Shown one piece after another: positions 17,495 to 37,780 of a DNA stretch of 64,000 nucleotides (position 1 is its first letter; each line of letters starts with the position of its first letter). Source of the stretch: an uncultured Acidobacteriota bacterium (GTDB lineage: Bacteria > Acidobacteriota > Terriglobia > Terriglobales > Acidobacteriaceae). The notes under the pieces are model-generated. The model saw only the letters and a program-made list of their open reading frames with translations, searched no databases and was not told where the DNA came from. The stretch spans positions 22,741 through 86,740 of the forward strand of contig CAWHQK010000082.1 in assembly GCA_963831435.1 (NCBI GenBank), read 5' to 3'. Both the position numbers and the translations under genes were made by a program.

Positions 17495-17548
17495 TGTGCA
17501 AACCTCCTTATCGCATCGCGCGTTGTTATCTGTCCATGCTTCTCTCAG

Positions 17549-17580
17549 AAAAAAAAGCCGTCGCTTTTGCGGCGACGGCC
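17549..17580 (-). terminator. intrinsic terminator of the TonB-dependent receptor gene
   Basis: On the minus strand: GCCGTCGC-loop-GCGACGGC, followed by a T8 run. Confidence 0.8.
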
Positions 17581-17612
17581 TTTTCGAGCTTTGGACACTG
17601 GTAAATTCTAAA

Positions 17613-20600: not shown

Positions 20601-21332
20601 GGCGGGAAGAGTCGAGGTGATGACCTTGAATTCGCTGAGCGCTTCGACAGAGGGAGCGGTTTCGTCGAACGACGAACCATTTTCCGAACGAGTTGTGCCC
20701 GCGCCATCCAGTAAAACTTCGGTCGCGTAGTTTTGTCCACCGGTGATTTTGGATTCGAAAGTGCCTCCGTTACCGGAATCGGAGCCCGGGCCTACCGCTC
20801 CGGGCGTTAAGAACACAAACGCTTCAGGTGAGCGCATCGCCTGGACCGTGCTGCCGAGGGCGAGTGGAAGATCCAGGGTTTGTTTCTGCGTAATGACGGT
20901 GCCGATGTCTTCACTTTCTGACTGCACGTGAGGAGCATCCGCGTTCACGACAACATTTTCGCTGACCACGCCCGCTTGCAAGTTGATGTCCAGAGCACTG
21001 GTGGTTGCTACCTGCACCAAGACACCTTTCATCTGTATGGTCCGGAACCCATCTGCGGTAGCGGTAAGGTCATATGATCCGATGCTTAGGTTGGGGAAGC
21101 GATAAGAGCCGGCGCTGCTGGAAACTGTTTGATAAGTTGCGCCTGTAGAAACGGCAGTAGCGGTAATTTTCACATTTGGGACAACCGCGCCGGAAGGATC
21201 AAGCACGTTTCCGGCAATCGAACCCTGGTTGGTTTGTGCAACAGCGACACCGAGCATGATTGCCATAACCAGCGCAAGTTGCAACGGACGGACGCCGACA
21301 AAACGCAAACACCCGCGTCTTAAGTGATTCAT
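17613..21332 (-). CDS. TonB-dependent receptor with carboxypeptidase-regulatory-like N-terminal domain (intact, about 1239 aa)
   Basis: An ATG at 21332 preceded by GAGGGAG gives a signal peptide ending VAVAQ. CarboxypepD_reg-like segment: GSIAGNVLDPSGAVVPNVKITA...YRFPNLSIGSYDL. The plug and barrel follow, and the canonical terminus is RKIQLQLKFEF. Confidence 0.9.
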   Translation of the reverse strand: MNHLRRGCLRFVGVRPLQLALVMAIMLGVAVAQTNQGSIAGNVLDPSGAVVPNVKITATAVSTGATYQTVSSSAGSYRFPNLSIGSYDLTATADGFRTIQMKGVLVQVATTSALDINLQAGVVSENVVVNADAPHVQSESEDIGTVITQKQTLDLPLALGSTVQAMRSPEAFVFLTPGAVGPGSDSGNGGTFESKITGGQNYATEVLLDGAGTTRSENGSSFDETAPSVEALSEFKVITSTLPAEFGRTTGGIESFNTKSGTNAYHGVAYDLFRNEDLDANFWGNNYVLSQNPTPSARAAAQRPLDRQNDYGLTLGGPVVIPHIYNGKDKTFFFFSWEQYRQTQGGVSTSSVPTAAELGGDFTAQLNTANILGTNPCDGTSIFQGEIFDPNTTQTVGGVECRTAFMNEPGSTGNVIPTNRFSNVGQNIISFYPTPQNGNLINNFTFPFSFPILDTTTTFRIDQNISEKSKAYFTYNSRENVRISTNPIFAGPAGFGRDQFFGTHFVRFGYDYTLSPEMINHLNLGYNRTNSKNVGAGVKLGKGTDWDAQLGITGTSGVMFPQIGNSDATGFGDNVDGDTIDNGFRFADTFTWVHGKHEFKFGFEDWYQQYSPLNFQNTSGTFNFDHGPTAGTAATSNLSGNGIASMLLGLPTSVNLSSYASQPRWTRSYWAGFFQDGFKITPTLTINYGMRYDIDQPQKEANGDTSNINLTAPNPGAGNIPGVLEFAGKGPGRNGNVNERWANTWFKDFGPRLGLAWSPAMLHGKTVFRGGYGIIYGGLQYADFGGFNRTGFQANPAFNSPNGFDPALPLDSGLPSFAAPPNLDPSQLNFQGPQYTDPSYGRPPMIQNWSVEVQHELATDLILDVAYVGQHSTNLRSNYDAVNTLNPKFFSLGTTLLDLISSPQAAAAGINPPYAGFPGNLIAAQALVPFPQYFGFNTDGALENLGQSTYNALEASLQRRFHNGLNLMASYTWSKTLTNADAALPFFATLHQGGAPQNVFNKDGDKAISNQDLPQNLVISYIYELPVGKGKRFLASSKAADKVLGGWSVSGVQRYESGQPIAFGCATGVPAFAGCIRYDQVPGSSILSSAWKSGHFNPVTDSMFNPVDSSGLPNAAFDDPNSAANLATRGAYAFGTLPRVDGAIRMAPYLSEDFNLLKRTKITESKDLLLQVSFLNAFNRHIFNRPADLGANDSDHVNGSGQIIPGNFGRIQYLNFTTGGGGGYLLFPRKIQLQLKFEF

Positions 21333-21453
21333 GCTAGCTCCCTCACTCTCAAAATGGAATAGAGCAGCCATTACTTGGACTGTCTCAATACTGCGAATTC
21401 TGGCCCAATCTGCTTCCGGCGCAAACCTTGGCAAACCGGCCGATTCATCCAAA

Positions 21454-21487
21454 AGAAAACGTTTTCTTTCTTTAGCAAACGTTTTCT
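21454..21487. promoter_or_regulatory. two tandem LacI/PurR-type operator palindromes upstream of the TBDR
   Basis: AGAAAACGTTTTCT (21454-21467) is a perfect 14-nt palindrome. AGCAAACGTTTTCT (21474-21487) has one mismatch. The centres are 20 bp apart, about 120-155 nt upstream of the TBDR start. Confidence 0.55.
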
Positions 21488-21600
21488 TTGTTGCTTCTAC
21501 AGCGCTCCCCGCACTGTACGCCGCTTGCTGCTTCTTCTTCTACTTGCTACGACAGCTTCCTATTTTCGACTTTCTATTGCGCCCTGCCAAAACAACGCCG

Positions 21601-22803
21601 CTACTGCGTTGTATTTTGCATTTGACTGGATCTTTTCAACTTGTCCTGGAGTCTCTGCGCTTGCTCCGCGTCAGCCTGCTGTTTGAGACGCATGAAGGAG
21701 TTCAAAGCTGCGCGAGATTCTTCAGGATGTTGTGTTCGCCGGTACAATTGCGCCAATTGATAATAAGACTGACGCAAAGTCTCGGTGTCATTCTGGCTCG
21801 AATCGGACACTGCCGCCTGGAAGCTGTTGATCGCAGTCTCAGCATTTCCCATTTGCGCCTGCGCGCGCCCTAACTGATAGTGAGCATCTGGCGAGTGAGG
21901 CTCCTGTCGAAGCACCTCTGCCAATAACTGGACCGCGACTTCGGGCTTGGAGCGCTCGATACTCACAACTGAGAGTTTGTACATGGCAGTCACATTTTCC
22001 GGATCCTGTTTCAGTTCGTTCTGAAATTCGGTTTCGGCCTTGTCGAGCTGGTTTTGTTTCCAGTAGATATCCGCCAATTCTTCGTGCAGGCCGGGCTCAT
22101 CGGGTTTTAGCCGAATCGCCTCCTCACACTCGTTAATTGCATCACCGTAGCGTTCAGCATCAGTAAAAGACTGCGCCAACACTTCATGGACTCGCCACGA
22201 ATTCGGCTCGACTTTGTACATCTGCTCGTAACTGTCTTTCGAGATCAGCATGTGCGCGCGGCCGCGATGGTAAAGGATATCCACATCATTGGGCTTTAAC
22301 TTTGCCGCTTTGTCCAGACTCTCACCGGCATCGTCCACCTTACCCGCCGCCAGTTGCGCCACGCCGAGCCACATGTAAGCGTTTGCATTTTTGGAGTCAG
22401 AAAGTGTTTCTTTTTTCAGCAAACTTATCGCTCCCGCATAGTCGTTTCTTCGATAATTGGCGATGCCGGCGAACATATTTGCGCCGCGCAATCCGGGCCG
22501 CAACTTCAATGCATGTTCAAGCGACTGAGAGGCTTCGCCCCATTGCTTCTGCTGCAATCGAACCAGCCCAAGATTGAAATACGTCTCGGCGAAATTCGGG
22601 CGCAATTTGGCCGCCTGTGTAAACGATTGCGCGGCATCATCCCAATGCCCAGCCTGCATCGCCTGGACCCCTTGACGAAACGTTCGTTCAAAAACCGTTT
22701 CCTGGCCGGAGACCGAAACTGCTAAAAATCCGCACAATAAAATCGCTATTCCGGAGAAAAGGCTCAAGCGCCGAAAACACAATTGCATTCGCCTGCTCCA
22801 CAA
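21601..22803 (-). CDS. secreted TPR-repeat protein
   Basis: Signal/TM segment LFSGIAILLCGFLAVSVSG, followed by about 9 TPR-like 34-aa units (for example AETYFNLGLVRLQQKQWGEASQSLEHALKLRP). Confidence 0.85.
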   Translation of the reverse strand: MWSRRMQLCFRRLSLFSGIAILLCGFLAVSVSGQETVFERTFRQGVQAMQAGHWDDAAQSFTQAAKLRPNFAETYFNLGLVRLQQKQWGEASQSLEHALKLRPGLRGANMFAGIANYRRNDYAGAISLLKKETLSDSKNANAYMWLGVAQLAAGKVDDAGESLDKAAKLKPNDVDILYHRGRAHMLISKDSYEQMYKVEPNSWRVHEVLAQSFTDAERYGDAINECEEAIRLKPDEPGLHEELADIYWKQNQLDKAETEFQNELKQDPENVTAMYKLSVVSIERSKPEVAVQLLAEVLRQEPHSPDAHYQLGRAQAQMGNAETAINSFQAAVSDSSQNDTETLRQSYYQLAQLYRRTQHPEESRAALNSFMRLKQQADAEQAQRLQDKLKRSSQMQNTTQ

Positions 22804-23001
22804 GAATATCGGAAGGAATGTACTATCCCGAAAAGTGCATTGTCAAGCAAGTTCTGAGGCTTCCGCATCGTTTTGAGTAATCGTTTTCTCGATTTTAATT
22901 TTGGATAAAGTATTCAATTTGCGGAATATATCTTGGAACGCGGCCCTCCACACGAACAATCAAGTAACCGCTTAACGAGCAATCGTTTGGGACACGGGCG
23001 A

Positions 23002-24852
23002 TCAGGGCCGATTCCCTGAAACGGGGTCCTTACCCTCTTCGATCATAAAGTAACGATCGATTGCGGGCAGCGTCAGGTTTTGTACACTCCCGCTCGGCCA
23101 ACGGATTTCGACTTTGTCCACTTTAACAGTATCGCCCAATCCAAAGTGCACTCGCGGGTCGTTACACGAGGCGAAACTTCCCCCGCTCAGAACATCAGCC
23201 CGCTGCTTGATGCCCCCGGCAGTTAAATAGACGGTCGCTCCGACTGCATCCTTTGGACTTTTTGGGCCCCCGATCAGTTTAAGTCCCACCCAGTGGTTCT
23301 TGTCGCCGTTGACGTTGCGCAGCAGGGCAGGCGACCGGTCCAACTGGTTTATGACGACGTCAATTTTCCCGTCATTGAACAAATCACCAAATGCAGCGCC
23401 GCGCGCGGTAAACACCTCCGCCAGTCCTGTTCCCGTCACCGCAGGCATTACTTCAAATTTCTTGCCGCCAAGGTTGTGAAATACCACGGGGCGTTGCGCG
23501 TAGGTGGTGCCCCATCCTCTGTTGTCCACCTGCGGATAAACATGGCCATTGGCCACGAACAAATCCTTCCAGCCGTCATTGTCAAAATCCAAGAAGCCCG
23601 TGCCCCATCCAAGAAACGGGATGGTGACTTCCGCAACCCCCGCCTGATAGCTAATCTCTGTGAAGTTTGCGTCCCCATCGTTGCGGTAGAGCGGATTGTA
23701 GTCATCAGAAAAAACAGTGTTATAGAGATCAAGCCAGCCATTGTTGAGATAATCTCCCACGGCAATTCCCATGGATGCAGTTTCGCGCCCATCTTCATTC
23801 AAGGCATAGCCAGAGGCGTAGCTCGCGTCTTCGAAAGTCCCGTTCCCCTTATTGATGTACAAATAATTCGGCGTAGAATCGTCGGCGACGATCAAGTCGG
23901 GCCGGCCATCGTTGTTCAAATCGGCAAATACCGCGGTCAATCCGTAATACGCATTGGCGTCTGCAACGCCAGCTTTTTCGCTCACATCGGTAAAAGTGCC
24001 GTCGCCATTGTTGTGGAACAAGTGATCACGCTCGCCCTGCAACCCTCGAGGACCGCACATAACATTGATGCCGCGAAATTCGCAGGTGGCAAACTTCACC
24101 GATGCCGATCCCGGGTTTGGAGGGTGGTCCAGATCAAAGTGCACATAACCGGGCACAAAAAGATCTAGCCGGCCATCGCCGTCGTAGTCGCCGAATGTGG
24201 GCCCGGTGGACCAGGCACCTACGGTGACTCCAGCCTTTTCCGCAACGTCGGTAAAAGTCCCGTCGTGATTATTGTGGTAAAGGCGGTTCTTGCCATAGTT
24301 GCTCACATAAATATCAGGCCAACCGTCGTTGTCGTAGTCGCCGATGGCAACGCCGAATCCCCAACGATCGTTTGTGACCCCAGCTTTCGCTGCAACGTCC
24401 GTGAACGTGCCGTCGTGATTGTTATGAAAGAGAGCAGCGCGAGGGGAAGTAGCTTTTCCAGTCAGTGCGTCAAACGTCGATCCGTTGACAAGATAAATAT
24501 CCAGCCAGCCGTCATTGTCGTAGTCGAGGAGTGCAACGCCGGAGCCGACTGTTTCCAGAATGAATTTTTTTTCCGGAGAACCCGAAATGTGGTGCCACTT
24601 ACTGAGGCCTGCTTTTCCCGCGATATCCTGAAAAACAATTGGACCCGACTCCACAAACCCGCCGGCGGTAATAGGGCGCTTCTGTGTATCCAATACCGGG
24701 GCATACACGCCTCCCGTGGAGACGGCCCCCGCCTGTGGCGCTTGCTGAGGCTTCAGTTCCGCTGGCACCGATTGCGCAATCGCAATCGCAGAAGACAAGA
24801 ACAACCCGAAAAAGAACGACCCGAAAAGAACACAGTGCGCGAGTTTACGCAT
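23002..24852 (-). CDS. CRTAC1-family protein (FG-GAP/VCBS repeats + ASPIC/UnbV C-terminal domain)
   Basis: Sec signal peptide. Repeated units DYDNDGWLDIYLVN, DYDNDGWPDIYVSN, LFHNNHDGTFTDVA. C-terminal module: NHWVGLKLIGGPKSPKDAVGATV...DPRVHFGLG...VEIRWPSG. Confidence 0.88.
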   Translation of the reverse strand: MRKLAHCVLFGSFFFGLFLSSAIAIAQSVPAELKPQQAPQAGAVSTGGVYAPVLDTQKRPITAGGFVESGPIVFQDIAGKAGLSKWHHISGSPEKKFILETVGSGVALLDYDNDGWLDIYLVNGSTFDALTGKATSPRAALFHNNHDGTFTDVAAKAGVTNDRWGFGVAIGDYDNDGWPDIYVSNYGKNRLYHNNHDGTFTDVAEKAGVTVGAWSTGPTFGDYDGDGRLDLFVPGYVHFDLDHPPNPGSASVKFATCEFRGINVMCGPRGLQGERDHLFHNNGDGTFTDVSEKAGVADANAYYGLTAVFADLNNDGRPDLIVADDSTPNYLYINKGNGTFEDASYASGYALNEDGRETASMGIAVGDYLNNGWLDLYNTVFSDDYNPLYRNDGDANFTEISYQAGVAEVTIPFLGWGTGFLDFDNDGWKDLFVANGHVYPQVDNRGWGTTYAQRPVVFHNLGGKKFEVMPAVTGTGLAEVFTARGAAFGDLFNDGKIDVVINQLDRSPALLRNVNGDKNHWVGLKLIGGPKSPKDAVGATVYLTAGGIKQRADVLSGGSFASCNDPRVHFGLGDTVKVDKVEIRWPSGSVQNLTLPAIDRYFMIEEGKDPVSGNRP

Positions 24853-26006: not shown

Positions 26007-27692
26007 TTATGCCAGCGCCAACTCCAACTTTGTTATCGAAGCTGCTGGAAATTGGAAGTTGAGCATTCCATTTTTCGCCTCGGCGGTCACACTCTTCGCT
26101 GTAACGACGTTCCGCTCTGCAAAGGTGTTGTGCGCATGGATGTCCGAATTCGTAAGAACGGTCGCGGTGGCCGACTGGATTCTTGCGCCTCGGATCCCAA
26201 TTTCCGCCTCGCGCGGGTCGCTCACGTGCGGGTTCACTACCGTAAGAACAAGGTTCTTATCACGAAGCGATGCTGAGCCTTTCAGTCCCCAGAACGACGC
26301 AGGCTTGCCGTCGCGCTCGTAACTGACATTGGGAGCGGAGAACTCTGTTCGAAGTGCCTCTCCGCCCTGATGAGCGACATACATGGCGAATACATGGCCC
26401 ACGGGGGTCACGCAAAATTTGTCTTCGTGAGCGAGGTATAAGCTATTCAGACAGTTGATCAATTGCGCGCACGCCGCCATGGCAACTTTTTCAGGATTCC
26501 GGTTGAAGATGTCGAGCGTCATGCCGCTGAAGATCGCATCGCGCAAAGTGGACATCTGTTCCAGTTGGTCTGTCGGCGTTAATTCGCTGCCGGGGCGGTA
26601 CCAGGGGCCCCACTCATCCACAATGAGCTTTACAAGATGTTGTGGGTCCTGTTCGCCCATGATCTGCCAGTGACCATCAATCAAACCTTGCATCCGGTCG
26701 CCTTCGCGCAATAACTCATACCAATCCACCGCTTCAAAATTGAGCGCGTCACCTTTACCCGCCATCCAGTCCTCAGTTCGCCCGCGACTCAGGTTCCAGG
26801 CATAGTGATGCAGGGCCCAGCCATACACGCCCAACACGCCGCGACGTTCTCCATGGGCCATCTCCTCGAAAAAGCCGCGCGTCCACTCCCAGTTGTCCAC
26901 GTTCGGACCGGAAGCAATAAACGCCAATTTTTGATGGTATTCCGGCACCCAGGTTGTGAACCTTCGAAATTCGCTGGCGTACTGCTGCGGCGTGAAATTT
27001 CCACCGCATCCCCAGGATTCATTCCCCACGCCCCAGAATCGCACGTTAAAAGGTTCGGGATATCCTGCCGCAGCGCGTATATCGGCGAGCGTAGTGCTTC
27101 CACCGGGAGAGTTGCAATACTCGACCCACCGGTAGAATTGTTCAGCTGGCAGACTGCGCAGATTCGCGGCAAGGTATGGCTGGGCGCCAATCAGTTTGCA
27201 GAAGTTCGCGAATTCATTCGTGCCGAACTCGTTCGGGTCATATTTGTGGCTTGCAGGCGCGTCAGGCCTTTCACCGTCGGCCCAGAAATTTGTCCGCCGC
27301 GGGCGCTTATTTCGCGGCCCAATTCCGTCGCGCCAGTCATAGCTGTCCGCAAAACATCCTCCGGGGAAACGGACGACTGGAGGCTTGATTTTGCGCATTT
27401 CCTCCACCAGTTCTTTGCGGATGCCATTGATATTGGGAATTTTAGAACTTTCGCCAACCCAGATTCCGTCGTAAACCACGCCGCTCAAATTTTCCGTGAA
27501 ATGGCCATAAATCGCAGGCGAGATCGTTCCCAGTGGTTCATCAAGAAGGACTTCGATCCGTGAATTATTGCCTGTGGGGTTAGCCATCGCGAAGGGCGAG
27601 GTTTTGCTGAAGAGCATGGCGCCGGCAGCGGCGGCTAGCCCGGTTTCTAAAAATTGGCGGCGCTTGATCATCATAAAAATATTTTGTCTCAA
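26007..27692 (-). CDS. abfA: alpha-L-arabinofuranosidase, GH51, Tat-type signal (start probably ATG at 27674 or 27671)
   Basis: Twin-arginine motif KRRQFLETGLAAAAGA. GH51 motifs VRFPGGCFADSYDWRDGIGP and RFWGVGNESWGCGG. Confidence 0.88.
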   Translation of the reverse strand: MRQNIFMMIKRRQFLETGLAAAAGAMLFSKTSPFAMANPTGNNSRIEVLLDEPLGTISPAIYGHFTENLSGVVYDGIWVGESSKIPNINGIRKELVEEMRKIKPPVVRFPGGCFADSYDWRDGIGPRNKRPRRTNFWADGERPDAPASHKYDPNEFGTNEFANFCKLIGAQPYLAANLRSLPAEQFYRWVEYCNSPGGSTTLADIRAAAGYPEPFNVRFWGVGNESWGCGGNFTPQQYASEFRRFTTWVPEYHQKLAFIASGPNVDNWEWTRGFFEEMAHGERRGVLGVYGWALHHYAWNLSRGRTEDWMAGKGDALNFEAVDWYELLREGDRMQGLIDGHWQIMGEQDPQHLVKLIVDEWGPWYRPGSELTPTDQLEQMSTLRDAIFSGMTLDIFNRNPEKVAMAACAQLINCLNSLYLAHEDKFCVTPVGHVFAMYVAHQGGEALRTEFSAPNVSYERDGKPASFWGLKGSASLRDKNLVLTVVNPHVSDPREAEIGIRGARIQSATATVLTNSDIHAHNTFAERNVVTAKSVTAEAKNGMLNFQFPAASITKLELALA

Positions 27693-27712
27693 TCAGGATT
27701 GAGACGAACATC

Positions 27713-27724
27713 GTAAACGTTTAC
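27713..27724. promoter_or_regulatory. LacI-type operator palindrome in the divergent GH51 / CRTAC1-fusion promoter region
   Basis: GTAAACGTTTAC is a perfect 12-nt palindrome with a central CG. It lies 21 nt from the longest GH51 start and 54 nt from the 27778 start. Confidence 0.5.
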
Positions 27725-27777
27725 TAAAGTGCAATGCTATACTTTTTTCGCTCGTCATTTCTCGGCAGGCCGTCGTT

Positions 27778-30474
27778 TTGATGTCAGGTATTTGTTTCGC
27801 AGCCACAATTCGGGGGTCGGCCGTCAATCTTGCGCTTTCTATTTTTTGCTTCGCAGCGCTTTCCCTGATTTTTCCGGTACGAAGTCTCGCACAATCGAAT
27901 GCAAGCTCGACCGTTCCAGTGCGCATTATTGTGGTGGAATCTGAATCCGACGCGCAACAAATTCTCAAACGTCTGCAAACGGGCGCGGACTTTGCCGCGA
28001 TCGCAAAAGAAAAATCCATTGACGTTACCGCTCAAGATGGCGGATTCATGGGCAAGGTGGATCCTGCGAGTCTACGCAAAGAACTTCGCAACGCAATCCA
28101 GGGACTCACTCCCGGAGAGACCTCCGGGATCATTCGACTTCCTTCCAGTTTCGCTATTTTGCAGGTGCTGCGTTACGCCCCAGTTTCTGCGTCTCGCGCT
28201 GGTTCGAATTCCACAACCGCACCTTCGTCGTCCGGCAGCTCCGTTCCCACGCAGAGTATGCCCCTGACCGCGCGGGGAAGCATTCGCTATTTAGCCAATG
28301 TCGGGGGAAAGGGCGAAGCAGATCTCGCCTTCCGCAGTTATCCCAAGCCGGACGGATGGAGCCAAGACTTGAAGGCACTTTGCCAGATTCGCAAAGACTC
28401 GCTTTCCAGCGTAATTGATCTGCTCAAGCAGAATCTTACAAGCACTGGGCCAGAACTCACAGGCCACACTCCGCTCGACACTATTCAGACTCATTATGCC
28501 CTTGCGAATCTCTATGCCTACCAGGGTCAGATGGACAAGTCTGTGGAGCAATGGGAAAGCGCGTATCAGATGTCAAAGAGTGATATGCCACAAGTGTTGC
28601 CCGAGCTCGAAGAAGTGTTGGGCACCGCTTATCTTCACAAAGCAGAAATGGACAACGACGTGTATCGCAAACCCGGCGACCGCTGCATATTTCCTCCGCG
28701 GCCAGAGATGCGCTACGAGAAGACCGCTTCGTCGGAAAAAGCCGTGGACTATCTGCTGAAATACTTGCAGCGACAACCGGACCGGCTCGATGTGAGATGG
28801 CTGCTGAATCTTGCTTACATGACTCTGGGCCAATATCCCGAAGGCGTTCCCAAGCAATATTTGATTCCGCTTTCCTCCTTTGAATCCGCGGAAGATGTAG
28901 GCCGGTTTGTGGATGTTGCTCCCGAAGCGGGCCTCAACATGTATGACATGTCGGGTGGTTTGATTGTGGACGACTTCGACAATGATGGCCTGCTCGACAT
29001 CGTGACCTCTGACTACGGCCAGTGCGCGCCGATGCACTTCTTTCACAACAACGGCGATGGAACATTTTCTGACCGCACCGCGCAAGCGGGATTGAGCGAT
29101 CAGCTTGGCGGACTGAATCTTATCCAGGCGGACTACAACAACGATGGCTGCGTGGATATTCTGGTGCTACGGGGTGCATGGGAGTTTCCGCAACGCAAAT
29201 CGTTGTTGCGAAATAATTGCGATGGAACATTTACGGATGTGACCGCAGCGGCCGGTCTTGCCGACCCCGCAACTGACACGCAAACTGCTGTGTGGGCGGA
29301 TATTGATAACGACGGCTATCTCGATTTACTGGTCGGCAATGAAAATGTTCCCAGCCAGCTCTTCCATAACAACGGCAATGGCACATTCACCGACATCTCG
29401 CACAAGGCGGGAGTCGATCATATGGGGTTCAGCAAGGCGGCCGTGGCGGCCGACTATGACAATGACGGCTACGTTGACTTTTTTGTTGCGAATCTCAGCG
29501 GCAACCACTTTCTTTATCACAATAACCACAACGGAACATTCAGCGAAGTCGCATTGCAGGCAGGCGTGCAGGAACCAAAACAAGCTTTTCCAGCATGGTT
29601 CTTCGATTACGACAACGACGGGTGGCCCGATCTTTTTGTAAGTAGCTACTACGTTTCCGTGGATGAAACGCTGCGCAGTTATCTCGAGCTTCCGCCCAAC
29701 GCCGAAACCTTGAAGATCTATAAAAATCTTGGAAATGGCACTTTCCGCGATGTGACCCAAGAGGTCGGACTGGACCGGGTGTTCATGCCCATGGGATCCA
29801 ATTTCGGCGACATTGATAACGACGGATTTCTCGATTTTTATTTGGGGACGGGAAATCCGGCGTACAGTTCTCTTCTTCCGAATGTGCTGTTTCATAACAA
29901 AGAAGGCAAATATTTTGTGGATGTCACGGCATCCTCCGGAACAGGGGAATTACACAAAGGACATGCGGTAGCGTTCGCGGACATTGGAAATAACGGCCAG
30001 GAAGATTTGCTGGAGGAAGTCGGCGGCGCCGTGCCCGGCGACAGCCATGCCTTCCGGCTGTTCAAAAATCCTGGGAACGGCAATGACTGGATCACCCTGC
30101 GTTTAGTGGGCGTGAAAACCAATCGTTCGGCGATAGGGACGCGGATTAACGTCACCGTGCAAGACCAGGGACAACCGAAACGCTCCGTTTATCGGACGGT
30201 CGGCAGCGGAGGTTCATTCGGCGCGTCTCCCCTGCAACAGCATATTGGGCTGGGAAAATCGGCGAAGATTCTGGATATAGAAATCTGGTGGCCGGTCAGC
30301 AACACGCGCCAGCACTTTGCTGATGTTGCTCCCGACCAGTTTCTCGAGATCAAAGAATTTGACAAGAATTACAAGAAGCTCGAACGAAAGTCATTCGAAC
30401 TCGGAGGGCGCAAGCCAAACGCAGACGCAGCGCACAATTCAACGCCGCAAACGCCCTTGACAAATTCTCATTAA
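27778..30474 (+). CDS. fusion protein: parvulin-type PPIase domain + TPR-like helical region + CRTAC1 (FG-GAP/VCBS + ASPIC/UnbV)
   Basis: PpiC-like segment: VRIIVVESESDAQQILKRLQTGADFAAIAKEKSIDVTAQDGGFMGKV...GETSGIIRLPSSFAILQV. Helical TPR-like segment: HYALANLYAYQGQMDKSVEQWESAYQM. These are followed by DDFDNDGLLDIV, ADYNNDGCVDIL and FHNNGNGTFTDIS repeats, and by NDWITLRLVGVKTNRSAIGTRI...IEIWWP. Confidence 0.8.
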   Translation: MMSGICFAATIRGSAVNLALSIFCFAALSLIFPVRSLAQSNASSTVPVRIIVVESESDAQQILKRLQTGADFAAIAKEKSIDVTAQDGGFMGKVDPASLRKELRNAIQGLTPGETSGIIRLPSSFAILQVLRYAPVSASRAGSNSTTAPSSSGSSVPTQSMPLTARGSIRYLANVGGKGEADLAFRSYPKPDGWSQDLKALCQIRKDSLSSVIDLLKQNLTSTGPELTGHTPLDTIQTHYALANLYAYQGQMDKSVEQWESAYQMSKSDMPQVLPELEEVLGTAYLHKAEMDNDVYRKPGDRCIFPPRPEMRYEKTASSEKAVDYLLKYLQRQPDRLDVRWLLNLAYMTLGQYPEGVPKQYLIPLSSFESAEDVGRFVDVAPEAGLNMYDMSGGLIVDDFDNDGLLDIVTSDYGQCAPMHFFHNNGDGTFSDRTAQAGLSDQLGGLNLIQADYNNDGCVDILVLRGAWEFPQRKSLLRNNCDGTFTDVTAAAGLADPATDTQTAVWADIDNDGYLDLLVGNENVPSQLFHNNGNGTFTDISHKAGVDHMGFSKAAVAADYDNDGYVDFFVANLSGNHFLYHNNHNGTFSEVALQAGVQEPKQAFPAWFFDYDNDGWPDLFVSSYYVSVDETLRSYLELPPNAETLKIYKNLGNGTFRDVTQEVGLDRVFMPMGSNFGDIDNDGFLDFYLGTGNPAYSSLLPNVLFHNKEGKYFVDVTASSGTGELHKGHAVAFADIGNNGQEDLLEEVGGAVPGDSHAFRLFKNPGNGNDWITLRLVGVKTNRSAIGTRINVTVQDQGQPKRSVYRTVGSGGSFGASPLQQHIGLGKSAKILDIEIWWPVSNTRQHFADVAPDQFLEIKEFDKNYKKLERKSFELGGRKPNADAAHNSTPQTPLTNSH

Positions 30475-30475
30475 G

Positions 30476-32404
30476 TTATTGCTTGGCCGTTTCGCCGGTT
30501 GCCGGCACGGAGTAAAAAGCAATCTCGCCACTCTTGAATACCGCGAGTTGATCTCCCGAGGGAGAAATTCCGAAGGATTGGAATGTGGGAATGGGCGATG
30601 CCACATTCACCGCGAGCACTTTCTGTCCATTGTTAGCGCGGTACAGAACAATATGTTCGCTTTCTAAATCATTGCTGCGAAAAGCAACTTCGGGTGCGAT
30701 GGACTTCGAAGCTTTTGTAACCGCGACTGCAAACAAACCACTGGCTGCGCGCCCTTCGGCCAGTTGCCCCAGTTCTTCAGACGAAGAATGTCCTTTGAGC
30801 ACCGGCTTCCCTTCCGACGTCAGAATGCGGTACCACGTTCCTGACGGTTGATCGCACCCGGTGATAAACAGAAGATCGGGGGGCAAACTCTTCGCGCTTA
30901 CCCGGCAGGTAGAACGGACCTCTGCCAGCACTCGTCTTTGCCCAGCCCAGGTTTGCTCAACGACGCGCCAACGGTTTTTGCCAATGGTGGGAATGCGAAT
31001 TTCACCTTCGTCGGACAAAACCGGAGGGGCATCGAACGAGGACCGCACGACCCGGGCAAGCGTACGAAATTCCGCATCGAGCACTCGCACTTCAACATCT
31101 TCTTCAGGCTCACGCCCCTCGGCCTCTTCCAATTGTCTATGGATCGCGGCCGTATGGCGCTCCTGTACAACGCCGACAGCGAAATATTTGCTGGATGGCG
31201 AGATTGCTACAAACGCTAATGGACCGTTGACCACCACGGACTGCTCAAGTCTGAGTCCGGGGCCATACACCCGCAACTGCCTCCCAATATGAACCAGGAC
31301 TTTATTGCTTCCAATGGGCCAAAGGTATTGGCCACCATCGGGAACCAACCAGTCCTCCACGCGTTTAATTTTTTCCGTCTTCACATCAATCAGCACGCTG
31401 CGGATGGTTCGCCATGGCCCGGACAATCCGATACGAGGCACGAGTTCGTGCGGGTCAAACGTGAACAATAACTGGTTCTCGCCTAAATAGGAAAGCGCGG
31501 CTTCGCGATCAAAGTGATACATGTCGCGGTTGGACGATGAAACGTATCCCAGATTTTTAATAGAAATCGCGGAAACTGACCCGGGCGAAGCCAACGACGT
31601 ATCAGTCGCCGCAGCTATGCTGCATTGCGGCGGTTCGCACACTTCCGTTGTATCAACGAATTCGGGAACGCTCGGGACGGTCCGCGCAACATTCGACGCG
31701 GAGGTGGTGGCTGTAGTTGGAACAATTTTCGCCGCCGGGCTGGCAGCCCTGGCTTTTACATTTGGCACCAGAACGAATTGCAACCCGCTCTCGAGCCGGA
31801 GATTGTGATGATCGTCGGAAATGATCGAGCTTCCCTCGGGGCCCGTTCCAACATTTAACTTTACGTTCCGCATGCCTAGCACCTGACCGGGCATGACGGC
31901 CTTCGGCGGTTTGCGCTGAGTAGGCTGGAATATCACTGTCTGCGCCGCCTGTGTCACGCTTCGCATCCCATTGCCGCTCACGGCGATGCTATCGCCATTC
32001 AAGCCCAAACCAACGGCGTCTGAGAGCGCCGGCATTTGCTCTTCATTGAATAAGTTTGTGTCCTGGGGACTTGGAGCAATCATTGCGGCCACAGTGAGCG
32101 GAATAGGCTTCATATCCTTGCCGTTGCATTCACCGCTTTCAAAGATCAGCGCAAGTTTGGACGCCCGAGCGGTTCGCGTTCGTTCATTTTCTAAGACGAC
32201 GCGCCCCTTTAGCGTGGCCCCTTTGCGCAGGTGGCACTGCGCTCCCTTCCATTCGACTTCAACTTTTGCGAGGACTGGATCTCCCACTTTGATGTGGCCA
32301 GCTTCAATCGGATGAAGAAGTTCGGCCTGAACAGGAACTGGCGGCGTTTCAGCGAAAGAAATTGACGCGGAAATTAAGAGGAGGCCGAGAACTTGTTTAA
32401 GCAT
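30476..32404 (-). CDS. secreted hypothetical protein (about 642 aa), no family recognised
   Basis: The ATG at 32404 gives signal peptide MLKQVLGLLLISASISFAETP. The ORF is long and uninterrupted, and the C-terminal half looks beta-rich (possibly a propeller). Confidence 0.6.
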   Translation of the reverse strand: MLKQVLGLLLISASISFAETPPVPVQAELLHPIEAGHIKVGDPVLAKVEVEWKGAQCHLRKGATLKGRVVLENERTRTARASKLALIFESGECNGKDMKPIPLTVAAMIAPSPQDTNLFNEEQMPALSDAVGLGLNGDSIAVSGNGMRSVTQAAQTVIFQPTQRKPPKAVMPGQVLGMRNVKLNVGTGPEGSSIISDDHHNLRLESGLQFVLVPNVKARAASPAAKIVPTTATTSASNVARTVPSVPEFVDTTEVCEPPQCSIAAATDTSLASPGSVSAISIKNLGYVSSSNRDMYHFDREAALSYLGENQLLFTFDPHELVPRIGLSGPWRTIRSVLIDVKTEKIKRVEDWLVPDGGQYLWPIGSNKVLVHIGRQLRVYGPGLRLEQSVVVNGPLAFVAISPSSKYFAVGVVQERHTAAIHRQLEEAEGREPEEDVEVRVLDAEFRTLARVVRSSFDAPPVLSDEGEIRIPTIGKNRWRVVEQTWAGQRRVLAEVRSTCRVSAKSLPPDLLFITGCDQPSGTWYRILTSEGKPVLKGHSSSEELGQLAEGRAASGLFAVAVTKASKSIAPEVAFRSNDLESEHIVLYRANNGQKVLAVNVASPIPTFQSFGISPSGDQLAVFKSGEIAFYSVPATGETAKQ

Positions 32405-33582: not shown

Positions 33583-34830
33583 TTAATGCTTATCAGCCCC
33601 GGTCGAAGAATCTTCGCCGGGGTTGATGATTTCTACGCCGGCGTTGTGCGCCTTCACCTCTTCCTGGTCAAGTTCGTTGGTGATTTTTAACTGCGCGGCC
33701 GAATCTTCTTTTCTTCCCAGCCGTGCGTAACTCAATCCCAAATAATAATGGGCTTCGCGCAACGACGGCTCAACGGTGACGGCTCGCTCCAACAATTTCG
33801 CGGCCTCGTCATAATTCTTCTTTTCGAATTCGATCCGTCCCATTCCCGTGAGTGCGCCTGCATGGTGCGGATCGCGTTGCAGGACGTAGATAAAATGCAT
33901 GCCCGCTGCACCCAGATCGCCGGCATTCAGTTCGAGCCGGCCCAATTGAAAATATGATTCCGTTTGCACAGGCTTTAACTGGATAGACCGCTCAAATTCA
34001 GTTTTCGCCTCGGGAAATTGTTGCAGCGATGCAAGCGTGAGAGCTAACGCGTAATGCCCGGATGCGTCTCCAGAGTTAAGTTGCACATAGTGTGCGAATG
34101 TATCGCGCGCGTCCTGATATTTTGCCAGCCCCATTTGGGCACGGCCCAGAGCATAAATCGCTTTCGCGTCTTCTTTGCGGACTTTGAGGACGCTTTGAAA
34201 AGCCTGAATGGCGTCTGGGAACAAGGACATGCGAAGCGCCGCCATACCAAATTCATAAAGCACTTCAGGATCATTCGGGCTTGCCTGACGAGCCTGCATC
34301 ATGAACGATAAAGCTTTTTCGCCGTCATTGTTCTGTAAAGCGATTTGAGATTCGTTGCGCAAAGCGGCTAGTAGGGAGTTCAGCGCATCTGTGCGCGTAG
34401 GATCGATTCGCAGCGCTTCCTGAAATTCGGGGATTGCGTCAGCGGAGCGAGACATTTGTACATAAAGCAATCCGAGGTTTACGTGCGCGCTGGCAAAATT
34501 CGGATTCTGTTGGATGACCTGTTTGAAGAGCTTCTCCGCTGCAGCATTTCTTCCCTGCTGCGCCCGAACAATACCCATAAAATTCAGCGCGCGATACTCG
34601 TGTGGGTCCGCATTTAATATGGATTGCAACTCGTTCTCGGCCCGATCTAGGTTCCCCGCAGAAATCAATTGCGCGGCATCTTTCAGAAGACTCAGATTGT
34701 CCGATTGTGTCGCCACTTGGGCGGAGCAACACAGGGCGCACAACATCAACAGCGTTCCGAGCGCACAAGCCGCAACCACTTCGCGGCACTCGCGAAGCGC
34801 AGGATCGATGGAATCTCTCCGCAAGATCAT
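33583..34830 (-). CDS. secreted TPR-repeat protein
   Basis: Multiple TPR units (for example ASAHVNLGLLYVQMSRSADAIPEFQEALRIDP). Its ATG overlaps the stop of the upstream TPR gene as ATGA at 34827-34830. Confidence 0.85.
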   Translation of the reverse strand: MILRRDSIDPALRECREVVAACALGTLLMLCALCCSAQVATQSDNLSLLKDAAQLISAGNLDRAENELQSILNADPHEYRALNFMGIVRAQQGRNAAAEKLFKQVIQQNPNFASAHVNLGLLYVQMSRSADAIPEFQEALRIDPTRTDALNSLLAALRNESQIALQNNDGEKALSFMMQARQASPNDPEVLYEFGMAALRMSLFPDAIQAFQSVLKVRKEDAKAIYALGRAQMGLAKYQDARDTFAHYVQLNSGDASGHYALALTLASLQQFPEAKTEFERSIQLKPVQTESYFQLGRLELNAGDLGAAGMHFIYVLQRDPHHAGALTGMGRIEFEKKNYDEAAKLLERAVTVEPSLREAHYYLGLSYARLGRKEDSAAQLKITNELDQEEVKAHNAGVEIINPGEDSSTGADKH

Positions 34831-35867
34831 CTTGCTCCGGCGCTCATGCCGGTTGCATTGGAATTTTGCTTGCCGATAAGATCTTCGGTCATTGCGAATT
34901 GCCGCGCGGCTAAATCCTTCTTACCCAGCCTCTGATAAACCCTGCCTAGCAAATAATGATTCGCACTGTTCGAATTGTCTAACCTCACCGCTTCTTCTAT
35001 CTGCATGCGGGCATCATCAAAATGATTCGCAGCGAAATAGGCCTTACCTAATTCATAACGCGCCTTGCTGGATCGTGGCGCAATTTGCGTGGCCCTCAAC
35101 AGCAACGGAACCGCTTCGGGCCCCCGATTCAGTTTTTCCAGTAAAATGCCAAGGTCGAGATACGGTTCTTCATCATGGGCTGCGGCGGCCGCATCCAGGT
35201 CAATTGCTTTACGATAAGCGGCGATTGCCTGCGTGGTTTGGTTTTTTCCTTCCAGGCTAAGCCCGAGATTATCTTCCGCTTTCACATTCGCAGGGTCACG
35301 GCGCACGACTTCCTGGAATGCCGCAATCGCCTGGTCAAATTTATTTTGCTGATAGCGCACGCGGCCCAAATGATAGCGGGCTTCCAGATTGTCGGGGTCC
35401 ATTTTCAGCGATTCTTCAAGATAGCGGCCCGCATCTTCGTAATCATTCAATAAAACGTAATCGAGTGAAACAATTTTCAAATCGTCGGAGGTTGGAGTTT
35501 TTAGTTTTGCGGCGGCAGTAAATAATTTCAGCGATTCCTGGGGCTTGTCCTCACGAAAACGAAGGTACGCCAGCAAGTACACCGCATCCTGGGAGTTCGG
35601 ATTGTTCGCAACGTACGGTTCAAGCGTGCTGGCGGCCTCTTTAATCTGTCCCACGTTGATGAGCGATTTGGCAGCATAGAGGCGCGCATCCGACTTGCCT
35701 GGCTGCGCTTTTTCATATTGCTGAAAGGCCGTGGCTGCATCGCTCCACTGCCGCTGTCGGAAAAATTCCAGCCCGCGCGCATATTGATCGACTTGCGCAA
35801 ACGCGGAAATAGACAACAGAAAGCCCACCAAAAAATAGCTTCGGAAACTGAAAGCCCGCTGCGCCAT
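34827..35867 (-). CDS. secreted TPR-repeat protein
   Basis: Signal peptide FLVGFLLSISAFAQ followed by TPR units. The start lies 11 nt after the stop of the upstream CRTAC1 gene. Confidence 0.85.
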   Translation of the reverse strand: MAQRAFSFRSYFLVGFLLSISAFAQVDQYARGLEFFRQRQWSDAATAFQQYEKAQPGKSDARLYAAKSLINVGQIKEAASTLEPYVANNPNSQDAVYLLAYLRFREDKPQESLKLFTAAAKLKTPTSDDLKIVSLDYVLLNDYEDAGRYLEESLKMDPDNLEARYHLGRVRYQQNKFDQAIAAFQEVVRRDPANVKAEDNLGLSLEGKNQTTQAIAAYRKAIDLDAAAAAHDEEPYLDLGILLEKLNRGPEAVPLLLRATQIAPRSSKARYELGKAYFAANHFDDARMQIEEAVRLDNSNSANHYLLGRVYQRLGKKDLAARQFAMTEDLIGKQNSNATGMSAGAR

Positions 35868-35878
35868 GGAGATGCCTG

Positions 35879-37606
35879 TTAGGGGTTCGAAGAGTTGCCT
35901 TCTGTGACCGTGAGAATCTGATCAGCCTTCACATTTTTCAGCGTCTGCGCCGTGCCGCTCGGCCAATGAATCTGAATTTCACTCGCGGAATTGGCGCTGC
36001 CCAACCCAAAGTGTACACGCTTATCACTCGATGATTCGTAGCTTCCAGCGGTGGTCACCGTCGCGTACTGCGCTCCGCCGCCTGTCATGATTTTAATTCG
36101 GGCTCCGATTGCATCCCGATCGCTCTTGGTTCCCACAAGCTTAAGCGTGAGCCAGTGATTTTGCGTCGGGGTTTCGTTGATTAAAATCCATGCGGGACCG
36201 TTGTTCGAAGTGACGACCACGTCCATCTTTCCATCATTGTGAATATCGCCGATTGCCATTCCACGCGCGGCCCATTTCTGCTGAAAAACGTCCCCAGATT
36301 GCGCGGAAACATCCACAAATTTCTTTCCCTCCTTGTTCCAAAGAAGCAGCGGCGATTCCTTGTAGTGGAGATGCGGCTCGTTGATTTCAATTGTGTCCAT
36401 CACGTGCGACTGCGTAATGAATATGTCCTTCCATCCGTCGTTGTCGTAATCCACGAATCGCACGCCCCACCCGGAATGGAGCAGACTGATGGTGCCCAGC
36501 CCGGTCGTGTTGGTGGAATAGTTGAAAGTTCCGTCTCCGGCATTCTGGTAGAGCGCGTACCTCTGATTGGCCAAATCGGTAATAATCACGTCCGGCCAGC
36601 CGTCGTTGTCATAATCCTCGAAGTCCACCCCCATGCCTGCAAATGAAGCCCCGCCGCCATCAAGGGCCACGCCGGAAACCAGCCCTATTTCTTCAAATGT
36701 ACCGTCACGCTTATTGTGAAAAAGAGATTCAGGAATGGAATCATTGGCAACAAGTACATCCGGCCATCCATCGTGATCGTAATCCGCAATGGCGACTCCC
36801 ATTCCTTTGATCGGTTTATCGAGGCCGGCTTTTTGCGTTACGTCGGTAAACTTTCCGTTGCCATCATTGTGGTACAGGATGACAGATATAGGTTTGAAGA
36901 TATCGGGATGGCAATAGGAGCGATATCCAGCCTTCCGTTCGCCACAATACAAATCGTCAAAATCCCACTGCATGTAGCGCGCAACCAGCAAATCCAATTT
37001 GCCGTCGTTGTCATAATCGAACCACGCCGCGCTAGTGGCCCAGCCGGAACCCGCAACACCGGCGGCATTTGTGACATCGGTGAAAGTGCCGTTGCCATTG
37101 TTGTGGTACAAAGTGCTCCGGCCGTAGCCCGAGACAAATAAATCTTCGTAGCCGTCGTTATCGTAGTCGCCGACTGCCACCCCGGTGCAGTAGCCAATCC
37201 CAATCAAGCCTGCCTTTTCGGTCACATCTTCAAACGTGCCGTCAGGTTTTTGGTGAAATAAACGGTTCCAATATTTCGGGCTGGTCTTTTGCGGAATGGT
37301 CCCTTTGGGAGTCGGATCCTCGATCGGCGCGCCATTGGCAAAAAAAATATCGAGGTGGCCGTCGTTGTCATAGTCGAACAGGGCGACGCCAGAACCCATG
37401 GTTTCCAGTAAATATTTCCTGCTGGTTGGAGAAGCCTGTTGTTGAAAGTGGACTCCAAGCTTTTCGGTTGCATTCACAAAGAGGCCGGGGGTTGGAACTG
37501 CAACAGAAGCAGAAGAAGGCTTACCAGTTTGACCAAAAGAACAAATTGACGCGACCAAGACCGCAAACAAGCACATCCAGGCCGGAACAATGCGCACCTT
37601 GTTCAT
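35879..37606 (-). CDS. CRTAC1-family protein (FG-GAP/VCBS + ASPIC/UnbV)
   Basis: The ATG at 37606 gives signal peptide MNKVRIVPAWMCLFAVLVASICSFG. Repeats DYDNDGHLDIFFAN, DYDNDGYEDLFVSG and LYHNNGNGTFTDV. C-terminal module: NHWLTLKLVGTKSDRDAIGARI...HFGLG...IQIHWPSG. Confidence 0.88.
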   Translation of the reverse strand: MNKVRIVPAWMCLFAVLVASICSFGQTGKPSSASVAVPTPGLFVNATEKLGVHFQQQASPTSRKYLLETMGSGVALFDYDNDGHLDIFFANGAPIEDPTPKGTIPQKTSPKYWNRLFHQKPDGTFEDVTEKAGLIGIGYCTGVAVGDYDNDGYEDLFVSGYGRSTLYHNNGNGTFTDVTNAAGVAGSGWATSAAWFDYDNDGKLDLLVARYMQWDFDDLYCGERKAGYRSYCHPDIFKPISVILYHNDGNGKFTDVTQKAGLDKPIKGMGVAIADYDHDGWPDVLVANDSIPESLFHNKRDGTFEEIGLVSGVALDGGGASFAGMGVDFEDYDNDGWPDVIITDLANQRYALYQNAGDGTFNYSTNTTGLGTISLLHSGWGVRFVDYDNDGWKDIFITQSHVMDTIEINEPHLHYKESPLLLWNKEGKKFVDVSAQSGDVFQQKWAARGMAIGDIHNDGKMDVVVTSNNGPAWILINETPTQNHWLTLKLVGTKSDRDAIGARIKIMTGGGAQYATVTTAGSYESSSDKRVHFGLGSANSASEIQIHWPSGTAQTLKNVKADQILTVTEGNSSNP

Positions 37607-37780
37607 GAACAGAATTAGACCATAGCGCAATAGCCGCGCGGCAGCATCTAGCAAGGATTCTACAAGATCGGGCGCGCCGGAGCCACTCCCAGAGATTCTT
37701 GCGGACAGTTTTGCCGAAACAATTTTACTAAGAAGGCAATGATCTATGAGCTTTTCAAGGTGATCTGGGAACAGATTCCA

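Follow-up and report, generated by a model that had tools for sequence, protein, structure and literature searches.

The parvulin domain of Escherichia coli PpiD (PDB entry 2KGJ) and parvulin domain I of SurA are periplasmic, share the same fold, and lack both catalytic histidines, and the isolated PpiD domain has been reported to be devoid of peptidyl-prolyl isomerase (PPIase) activity (PMC2956729). Both proteins carry a SurA-type N-terminal chaperone module, and PpiD has a membrane anchor as well. Vertebrate CRTAC1 (9ETN) combines an FG-GAP beta-propeller bearing Dx[DN]xDG calcium loops with a UnbV_ASPIC domain; its role in animals, as a secreted matrix protein and Nogo-receptor ligand, is uninformative on bacterial function. 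In Streptomyces lividans, the secreted propeller enzyme GlxA receives its copper from a Sco protein (PMC4736821, PMC3603459); GlxA is a copper radical oxidase with a kelch-type propeller, a Cys-Tyr cofactor, and measured copper. Here, we analyzed a 64,000-nucleotide (nt) stretch of DNA from an uncultured bacterium of the Acidobacteriaceae (assembly GCA_963831435.1, contig CAWHQK010000082.1; referred to as the window), in which the gene at positions 27778 to 30474 encodes a secreted fusion of a parvulin domain, a helical domain, and a CRTAC1-type propeller.

The parvulin domain of this fusion protein resembles those of PpiD and SurA in fold, in the missing histidines, and in its periplasmic setting, and it shares with PpiD a segment ("ELRNA" here, "ELKNA" in PpiD) in place of the Met/Phe pocket. 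Unlike the PpiD and SurA domains, however, it is tethered to a CRTAC1-type propeller, and it is accompanied neither by the chaperone module nor by a membrane anchor. The propeller and the following UnbV_ASPIC domain were aligned with vertebrate CRTAC1 over 537 columns, but the two proteins are only 19% identical; the bacterial protein lacks the EGF-like tail, possesses extra N-terminal parvulin and helical domains, and differs further in its clade-specific His, Met, and Asp residues and in having a copper-chaperone operon partner. As in the GlxA system, a Sco-family copper protein is paired with a secreted beta-propeller protein, but this partner joins CusF and Sco regions in one protein and has Cx5C in place of CxxxC, and copper binding by the propeller is proposed from sequence and gene context, whereas copper was measured in GlxA. 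The same CRTAC1 core is found in canonical fusions with tetratricopeptide repeats (TPRs), of which two are encoded on other contigs of the same genome (C30 and C60) and one in a genome of another lineage (G309). The G309 protein also shares the domain order and the terminal hairpin motif "RWLLNL..G.YP.GVP", although it falls outside the clade of the fusion protein in the tree, and all three contain many TPRs above the Pfam cutoffs, in contrast to about seven helices with a single subthreshold motif in the protein studied here.

Public annotation already shows this combination of domains (JGI name "PPIC-type PPIASE domain/ASPIC and UnbV/FG-GAP-like repeat"), and the fusion itself is therefore not new. 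The novel findings are that the catalytic histidines have been lost throughout the family, that it has a conserved copper-chaperone partner, and that certain residues are clade specific.

Architecture of the fusion protein

The gene is a single plus-strand frame ending at 30474 and starting at 27778 (TTG) or, more likely, at 27781 (ATG), and it encodes 898 or 897 amino acids (aa), respectively. A Pfam search with the curated cutoff of each model placed Rotamase (PF00639) at residues 55 to 130 (47.1 bits versus a cutoff of 21.7), and Rotamase_2 and Rotamase_3 likewise scored above their own cutoffs. FG-GAP_3 reached 163.8 bits across six stretches, FG-GAP was also matched, and UnbV_ASPIC covered residues 785 to 856 (50 bits versus 23.4). 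An AlphaFold2 model built from 48 orthologues (predicted local distance difference test [pLDDT], 76.7; predicted template modeling score [pTM], 0.76) showed, in this order, a signal-peptide helix, a parvulin alpha/beta unit (residues 46 to 130), a disordered linker (135 to 172), about seven helices (178 to 350), the propeller, and a C-terminal beta domain. The top Foldseek match was murine CRTAC1 (9ETN; E = 4.8e-24, TM = 0.73). Of the seven blades, six have a canonical Dx[DN]xDG calcium loop and the remaining one has a variant; in the translation, the motifs read DDFDNDG, DYNNDG, DIDNDG, DYDNDG (twice), and DIDNDG. These data confirmed that the tripartite secreted protein is real, as an earlier note made from the letters of the window had claimed, including its PpiC-type parvulin domain at residues ~50 to 135 and its full FG-GAP/ASPIC module.

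The N terminus, MSGICFAATIRGSAVNLALSIFCFAALSLIFPVRSLA followed by QS, was recognized as a Sec signal peptide by inspection only; it coincides with a model helix at residues 8 to 29, no lipobox was seen when the translation was read by eye, and the hydrophobic character is retained in the orthologues. The linker varies in length and sequence among the aligned orthologues, and judging from the model, it would act as a flexible tether of the parvulin domain.

The parvulin domain has lost both catalytic histidines

When the parvulin domain was compared with PDB sequences by phmmer, the best match was the parvulin domain of E. coli PpiD (2KGJ; E = 3.5e-12), and SurA and PrsA parvulins were matched as well. 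Foldseek superimposed the N-terminal domain on the parvulins of PrsA, SurA, and PpiD with a root mean square deviation (rmsd) of 1.3 to 1.9 Å over ~90 residues, the PpiD domain (2KGJ) showing 40% identity and an rmsd of 1.6 Å. Models of NCBIfam for PpiD, SurA, and PrsA matched the parvulin segment only and fell far below their cutoffs, and neither SurA_N nor a related chaperone module was present among the Pfam and NCBIfam matches of the protein.

The catalytic histidines were located by correspondence to H59 and H157 of Pin1 and by the "HILV" and "G-x-H-I-I" motifs. At the first position, "SHILV" of PrsA aligns with "RIIVV" of the fusion protein, placing Ile50/Ile51 there, and at the second, "NGYHIIKL" aligns with "SSFAILQV," placing Ala126 there. 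All three replacing residues are at least 90% conserved in the 48 orthologues. The same replacements were found in eight sequences that include members of other families, down to 36% identity, and thus the histidine-less state is ancestral to the fusion rather than a recent decay. The Met/Phe pocket of active parvulins is represented by Leu99/Leu103, within a "KELRNA" segment that resembles "DELKNA" of PpiD. The other two active-site positions are retained, since Asp82 (the C113 position of Pin1) is invariant and Ser123 (the S154 position) is at least 90% conserved. Furthermore, 18 columns within residues 52 to 106, including R100, E102, and R104, are invariant in the orthologues, a pattern indicative of strong purifying selection on the domain and not of decay.

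Since the histidines are lost, the domain is strongly conserved, and the PpiD domain was reported inactive, the parvulin most likely serves as a tethered, noncatalytic module that binds (poly)peptides or is chaperone-like, rather than as a prolyl isomerase; the absence of isomerase activity is thereby predicted from the PpiD precedent. The earlier note had hinted at proline-rich substrates for the domain; isomerization of Pro/Hyp-rich substrates is an activity that the family-wide replacement of both histidines and the reported inactivity of the closest solved relative (PMC2956729) argue against. The pipeline label "PPIC-type PPIase" on these proteins is thus probably no sign of isomerase activity, and recognizing this guards against overannotation.

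A CusF-Sco gene is the conserved partner of the fusion gene

All proteins of the window were compared with 80 related loci by tblastn, and the neighboring open reading frames (ORFs) of these loci were clustered de novo. A gene for a periplasmic protein with CusF-like and SCO1/SenC-like regions (Table 1) was found directly downstream of the fusion gene and on the same strand in 61 of the 72 loci with enough sequence to judge, and in 12 of these 61, the stop and start of the two genes overlap by 4 nt. The downstream orthologues are 43 to 54% identical to the CusF-Sco protein of the window. By de novo clustering, CusF-Sco is the sole widely conserved neighbor, the other recurring ones being CRTAC1 paralogues (28 loci), TPR proteins (17 loci), and SusC-like outer membrane proteins (OMPs) (16 loci).

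The two genes also occur together across genomes. In a sample of 401 genomes spread evenly over the phylum, a partner with at least ~40% identity accompanied the fusion in 7 of the 8 genomes that have it (that of the window included) and occurred in only 2 of the 393 others, and within the family to which the window belongs, presence and absence of fusion and partner match exactly. Ligand motifs are kept in the partner, namely, the CusF-like SC..M.AM.M, the Cx5C, and the Sco histidine in H..HT; Cx5C (CPNPAYC in the window) replaces the CxxxC of Sco proteins in all 59 aligned family members. Because it is one of 2 to 7 Sco paralogues in the complete genomes of relatives, the CusF-Sco partner is specialized. 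No second copy of its gene was found in the genome of the window, which is 67% complete.

In the window itself, the next gene after the fusion is a convergent one of 665 aa, and CusF-Sco stands at the end of the divergent minus-strand string, which runs GH51 (a glycoside hydrolase [GH] family), GH5-like, CRTAC1, TPR, OMP, and then CusF-Sco. The same split arrangement is present in the nearest relatives (~95% identical), and it would be accounted for in part by an inversion whose breakpoint fell between the fusion and CusF-Sco genes. The last part of the string comprises the regions 16622-17623 (-) and 17613-24852 (-), in which the order is CRTAC1 (616 aa), TPR, OMP_b-brl_4, and CusF-Sco.

Among 10 parvulin-less relatives with the helical domain and the propeller, linkage to a Sco gene was found in a single one, which is nested in the fusion clade. 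More distant CusF-Sco homologues had no CRTAC1 gene next to them in any of 10 loci and were accompanied by DUF4198 and cytochrome c genes instead. In two such loci from genomes without the fusion (L120 and L121, in G357 and G389), a ~31% identical CusF-Sco gene has a DUF4198 protein gene upstream and a gene for a small c-type cytochrome downstream, a three-gene unit that looks metal related and distinct from the fusion-Sco unit.

Clade-specific residues of the propeller

The family was compared with three generic CRTAC1 paralogues and then with the parvulin-less relatives. Against the generic paralogues, R465, W468, E522, K553, M672, H726, H729, D755, H757, R760, and others are invariant in the family. 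Part of this set (R465, W468, E522, K553, M672, H729, and D755) belongs to the wider subfamily while being absent from the generic paralogues, and the parvulin-less relatives still hold H729, D755, M672, K553, and E522. Restricted to the Sco-linked clade, that is, the clade of the fusion protein plus a protein designated L105, are H287, H726, H757, R760, C458, and C481. Those clade-specific histidines that lie on the propeller suggest a link to copper. Derived from the standard topology of FG-GAP blades, H726, H729, M672, and K553 (just before strand 1) and D755 and H757 (in the turn between strands 2 and 3) would share one face of the propeller.

L105 is the sole parvulin-less relative that still has a Sco gene downstream. 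In a tree of the propeller region, from which the frames of L103b and L109 (antisense shadow ORFs with long branches) were disregarded, it branches within the fusion clade (SH-aLRT, 98), and it has thus lost the parvulin secondarily. Its genome, G335, holds two copies: copy A (L016) has the parvulin and adjoins a GH51 gene but is without a Sco gene, and in copy B (L105), the parvulin is cleanly gone, the signal peptide being joined directly to the linker. For several other Sco-less loci (L055 and L087), too, the genome holds another copy that is Sco linked.

The helical domain and its relation to TPRs

Pfam TPR models detected one motif only (residues 238 to 269), for which all scores were below threshold (TPR_14, 17.7 versus 23.5; TPR_2, 15.2 versus 27), and no tandem TPRs above the Pfam thresholds were found in either the whole protein or the isolated helical region. 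We looked for a structural relative of the domain in the PDB with its isolated model, and none was clear, since Foldseek returned only weak and generic matches to TPR and 14-3-3 proteins (best E = 2.5e-3; TM = 0.3 to 0.48, with high rmsd). Thus, of the TPR-like helical stretch described previously, the helical region stands, but its likeness to TPRs is weak. Residues from ~160-240 up to 385 are common to parvulin-less CRTAC1-like proteins of 710 to 880 aa identified in the phylum scan, and the helical domain is therefore an integral N-terminal part of one CRTAC1 subfamily. The domain has a hairpin at its end, "VRWLLNLAYMTLGQYPEGVP," as well as two conserved cysteines (Cys202 and Cys303) and a clade-specific histidine (His287).

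The earlier note had also read the protein as a Rosetta stone for CRTAC1 and TPR proteins encoded by separate adjacent genes. Such adjacent pairs do exist in the window (Table 1), and the link recurs beyond it, including as cis fusions of 1,171 and 1,296 aa in the same genome. The fusion protein itself does not support this reading, however: specific homology of its helical region to the adjacent TPR proteins was rejected, since hhalign of the helical-domain profile against the adjacent TPR protein gave a probability of 5% over 28 columns. The argument is far better made by the two cis fusions and by the G309 protein. The 1,171-aa protein (C30:46656-50171, +) consists of TPR, FG-GAP, and ASPIC regions with a large extra C-terminal region, and 194 nt downstream, on the same strand, lies a gene for a full-length PpiD homologue of 660 aa (C30:50365-52347, +). 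The 1,296-aa protein (L112; C60:1581-5471, -) contains FG-GAP, UnbV_ASPIC, an AhpC/TSA-like domain, and C-terminal canonical TPRs. Its AhpC/TSA-like domain, a thioredoxin fold, is apparently without the usual cysteines as read from the sequence, and the cis fusion of CRTAC1, thioredoxin fold, and TPRs echoes the CRTAC1/Sco operon, Sco being a thioredoxin fold too. The G309 protein (1,162 aa) has a Rotamase domain, many canonical TPRs, and then the same terminal hairpin and propeller; because canonical TPRs occupy the same place in it, the short helical domain may have arisen by reduction of a TPR array.

Distribution of the fusion

A word-indexed search with the first 400 residues yielded 1,630 proteins. 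The best 120 are 54 to 89% identical in this region, and all of them have Rotamase and FG-GAP, nearly all have UnbV_ASPIC, and 115 are 860 to 923 aa long. In addition, contigs from independent soil, rhizosphere, and litter metagenomes overlap through 27600 to 30600 and cover every domain junction. Since hundreds of acidobacterial orthologues have the same architecture and the junctions are tiled by metagenomes, the fusion is not an assembly artifact, an alternative that had been raised against it.

HMMER with the N-module (residues 38 to 385) retrieved 136 clusters (50% identity) at E ≤ 1e-30, mostly metagenomic fragments whose lengths are uninformative on whether the module occurs alone or in other architectures. 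When GTDB was scanned with one genome for each species, 344 relatives were found, the best 80 of which are nearly all from the Acidobacteriota (Terriglobia/Acidobacteriaceae, Bryobacterales, Vicinamibacterales, and Candidatus Sulfotelmatobacter), and one cultured carrier is Occallatibacter savannae AB23. In the phylum sample of 401 genomes, 8 have the full N-module. Two contigs labeled as other phyla hold an acidobacterial-type fusion gene together with the Sco partner, namely, L037 (labeled Verrucomicrobiia, 783 kb; 57% identity) and L062 (labeled Candidatus Saccharimonadales, 11.7 kb; 47% identity). The metagenome-assembled genomes in question were probably misbinned or mislabeled, horizontal transfer being the alternative.

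No curated NCBIfam model spans the fusion. Literature searches returned only passing mentions of bacterial CRTAC1/ASPIC-type proteins and no experimental study of this family, which is real, ordinary looking, and unstudied.

Genomic surroundings

The features of the fusion gene and of the window are listed in Table 1. A fourth CRTAC1-like copy is present, and a short frame further on is probably a truncated CRTAC1 paralogue or a pseudogene; in total, UnbV_ASPIC is matched 15 times in the genome.

Table 1. Coordinates of the fusion gene's domains and of other features in the window
Feature	Position	Strand	Remarks
CusF-like + SCO1/SenC-like periplasmic protein	16622-17494	-	SCO1-SenC, 56.4 bits versus 22.8; CusF_Ec, 44.2 bits
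CRTAC1	23002-24852	-	with TPR 21601-22803 (-)
Perfect 12-bp palindrome GTAAACGTTTAC	27713-27724		divergent intergenic region between GH51 gene and fusion gene
Sec-type signal peptide	27781-27891	+	residues 2-38; predicted cleavage between SLA and QS; read from translation
Parvulin (PpiC-type) domain	27913-28173	+	residues 46-132; Pfam, PDB phmmer, Foldseek
Ser/Ala/Pro-rich disordered linker	28174-28293	+	residues 133-172; pLDDT 21-26
Conserved helical domain	28294-28932	+	residues 173-385; ~seven helices; isolated-domain model pLDDT 85.2
Seven-bladed FG-GAP (CRTAC1-type) beta-propeller	28933-30081	+	residues 386-768; FG-GAP_3, 163.8 bits
UnbV_ASPIC C-terminal beta domain	30082-30387	+	residues 769-870; model strands 770-868
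Disordered tail after ASPIC domain	to stop codon 30472-30474	+	pLDDT <35
CRTAC1	35879-37654	-	with TPRs 34827-35867 (-) and 33583-34830 (-)
Fourth CRTAC1-like copy	58037-59764		
Short frame, ~180-194 aa	60941-61483	-	UnbV_ASPIC match only

The GH51 arabinofuranosidase gene (26007-27692, -) is located between a 371-aa GH5-like gene and the fusion gene. It is missing there in the closest metagenomic relatives (L114 to L116), in which the 371-aa gene and the fusion gene stand next to each other in divergent orientation, as if the GH51 gene had recently been inserted or deleted. The intergenic palindrome GTAAACGTTTAC is a lineage-specific candidate for a LacI-type operator: a similar site lies between the orthologue and the GH51 gene in G335 (L016:11516), and none was found beside most orthologues. 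Next to it, an inverted repeat, GTCTCAAT-CAGG-ATTGAGAC at 27686 to 27705, overlaps the GH51 start and could be a 5' untranslated region hairpin or a second operator. In G179, a LacI-family regulator gene (L023:13643-14695, -) is situated ~2 kb past a string of the fusion gene, the Sco gene, and a 677-aa gene. Palindromes of the form AAACGTTT occur near the glycoside hydrolase genes there (L015: 902, 4485, and 16337), and a LacI-family gene fits these.

A conserved link of the fusion gene to proline/hydroxyproline genes or to glycoside hydrolases was considered and rejected. GH51 adjoins the gene in 9 of the 80 related loci, all from close relatives, and no gene for dipeptidyl peptidase IV (DPP-IV) or hydroxyproline catabolism, the association that had been put forward from the window, recurs within 8 kb of it in these loci. 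Scans for promoters and terminators around the gene gave nothing beyond chance level, and a single 168-nt metatranscriptome contig is identical to 29370 to 29537, too little for any conclusion on transcription.

Proposed function and alternative explanations

We propose the following explanation, to which, as a whole, we assign a probability of roughly 55%. The fusion protein would be exported by the Sec pathway, and its core would be a calcium-stabilized seven-bladed FG-GAP propeller with an ASPIC domain, of the CRTAC1 type, with a small TPR-like helical domain at the N-terminal side of the propeller that would be integral to the CRTAC1 subfamily. A histidine-less parvulin of the PpiD type, on a disordered tether of ~40 residues, would bind (poly)peptides or be chaperone-like, as in PpiD and SurA domain I. 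The protein would function together with a CusF-Sco protein, a copper-binding periplasmic partner dedicated to it, and copper delivered by this Sco-like partner would be received or handled at a His/Met site on the propeller, a role suggested by the gene linkage, the co-occurrence, and the clade-specific residues. A more specific form of this idea is tentative, possible rather than probable: the fusion clade might represent an unrecognized secreted copper protein (an enzyme or a protein that captures copper) in which a His/Met site of the CRTAC1 propeller (H726, H729, H757, and M672, possibly capped by H287) is loaded by the dedicated CusF-Sco while the parvulin recruits polypeptide substrates.

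Several observations weigh against the proposed pairing with CusF-Sco and the binding role of the parvulin. The partner is not adjacent to the fusion gene in this window (~10 kb away) and in 11 of the 72 related loci, and distant CusF-Sco homologues (30 to 35% identity) occur without any CRTAC1 gene. Copy B of G335 is without the parvulin yet keeps the Sco partner, and since it lost the one and kept the other, the parvulin would be dispensable for the core function. The clade-specific histidines are grouped solely by blade topology, and the association of the clade-specific residues with the Sco partner amounts to one evolutionary event. Some dual-histidine mutants of Pin1 retain partial function, so that the loss of the histidines predicts a loss of catalysis without proving it. 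In this lineage, moreover, the fusion gene sits among GH51, GH43, and GH5-like genes, surroundings that could point to glycan work instead.

These surroundings lead to the alternative that survives best, although we judge it unlikely, namely, that the protein is an accessory of glycan utilization. Its propeller would be a carbohydrate-binding or lyase-like module of a locus that resembles a polysaccharide utilization locus, with SusC-like OMP_b-brl_4, GH51, GH43, and GH5-like genes, and the link to Sco would be incidental or regulatory. The fusion gene is indeed divergent from the GH51 gene with a LacI-type palindrome in between, synteny with the GH51 and GH5-like genes is found in G335 and G189, and strings of CRTAC1, TPR, and OMP genes are present in the window and in many related loci. 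Conserved polar residues lie on the propeller, and calcium-rich propellers such as the lyases of polysaccharide lyase families 11 and 22 (PL11 and PL22) act on pectin. On the other hand, the association with glycoside hydrolases is confined to the close relatives in those 9 loci, the GH51 gene is absent even in the nearest relatives, no polysaccharide lyase appeared among the top 50 Foldseek matches, and the partner that is conserved family-wide is a copper-binding protein.

Quite unlikely, in our view, is an explanation by maturation, in which the tethered parvulin would be an intramolecular chaperone for the calcium-dependent propeller and the Sco-like partner would be a thiol-disulfide oxidoreductase that sets C458-C481 and C202-C303 rather than a copper donor. 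It would account for the restriction of Cys458 and Cys481 to the Sco-linked clade and for the conservation of Cys202 and Cys303, and it fits the thioredoxin fold of Sco proteins, with their Redoxin and AhpC-TSA matches, the fusion of CRTAC1 to an AhpC/TSA-like domain in a paralogue of the same genome, and a parvulin that one lineage can dispense with. However, the CusF-like Cys/Met motif and the Sco histidine of the partner point to metal binding, the fused domain of the paralogue is without cysteines in the usual motif, and the invariant surface residues R100, E102, and R104 suggest a specific ligand, not general help in folding.

Least of all do we favor an active prolyl isomerase that works on Pro/Hyp-rich substrates (plant cell wall glycoproteins, for example) brought by the TPR region and the propeller, with the fusion reporting a physical CRTAC1-TPR partnership: for all its true parvulin fold, its retained Asp82 and Ser123, the DPP-IV and hydroxyproline catabolism genes in the same window, the GH51 and GH43 genes on either side, and the recurrent linkage of TPR and CRTAC1, such a role is very improbable given that both histidines and the pocket residues are replaced family-wide, the closest relative is the reportedly inactive PpiD domain, the neighboring genes in question are not conserved, and the helical region is without specific homology to the neighboring TPR proteins.

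Implications

The results separate the fusion gene from the hydroxyproline/proline story proposed for its neighbors. Few paralogous families of soil Acidobacteria are larger than the CRTAC1/ASPIC-type propellers, and the subfamily described here offers a concrete way in through its conserved two-gene unit, its candidate ligand residues, and the availability of Occallatibacter savannae AB23 as a cultured carrier. If the fusion clade is indeed a secreted copper protein, this would be the first biochemical function for bacterial CRTAC1 homologues.

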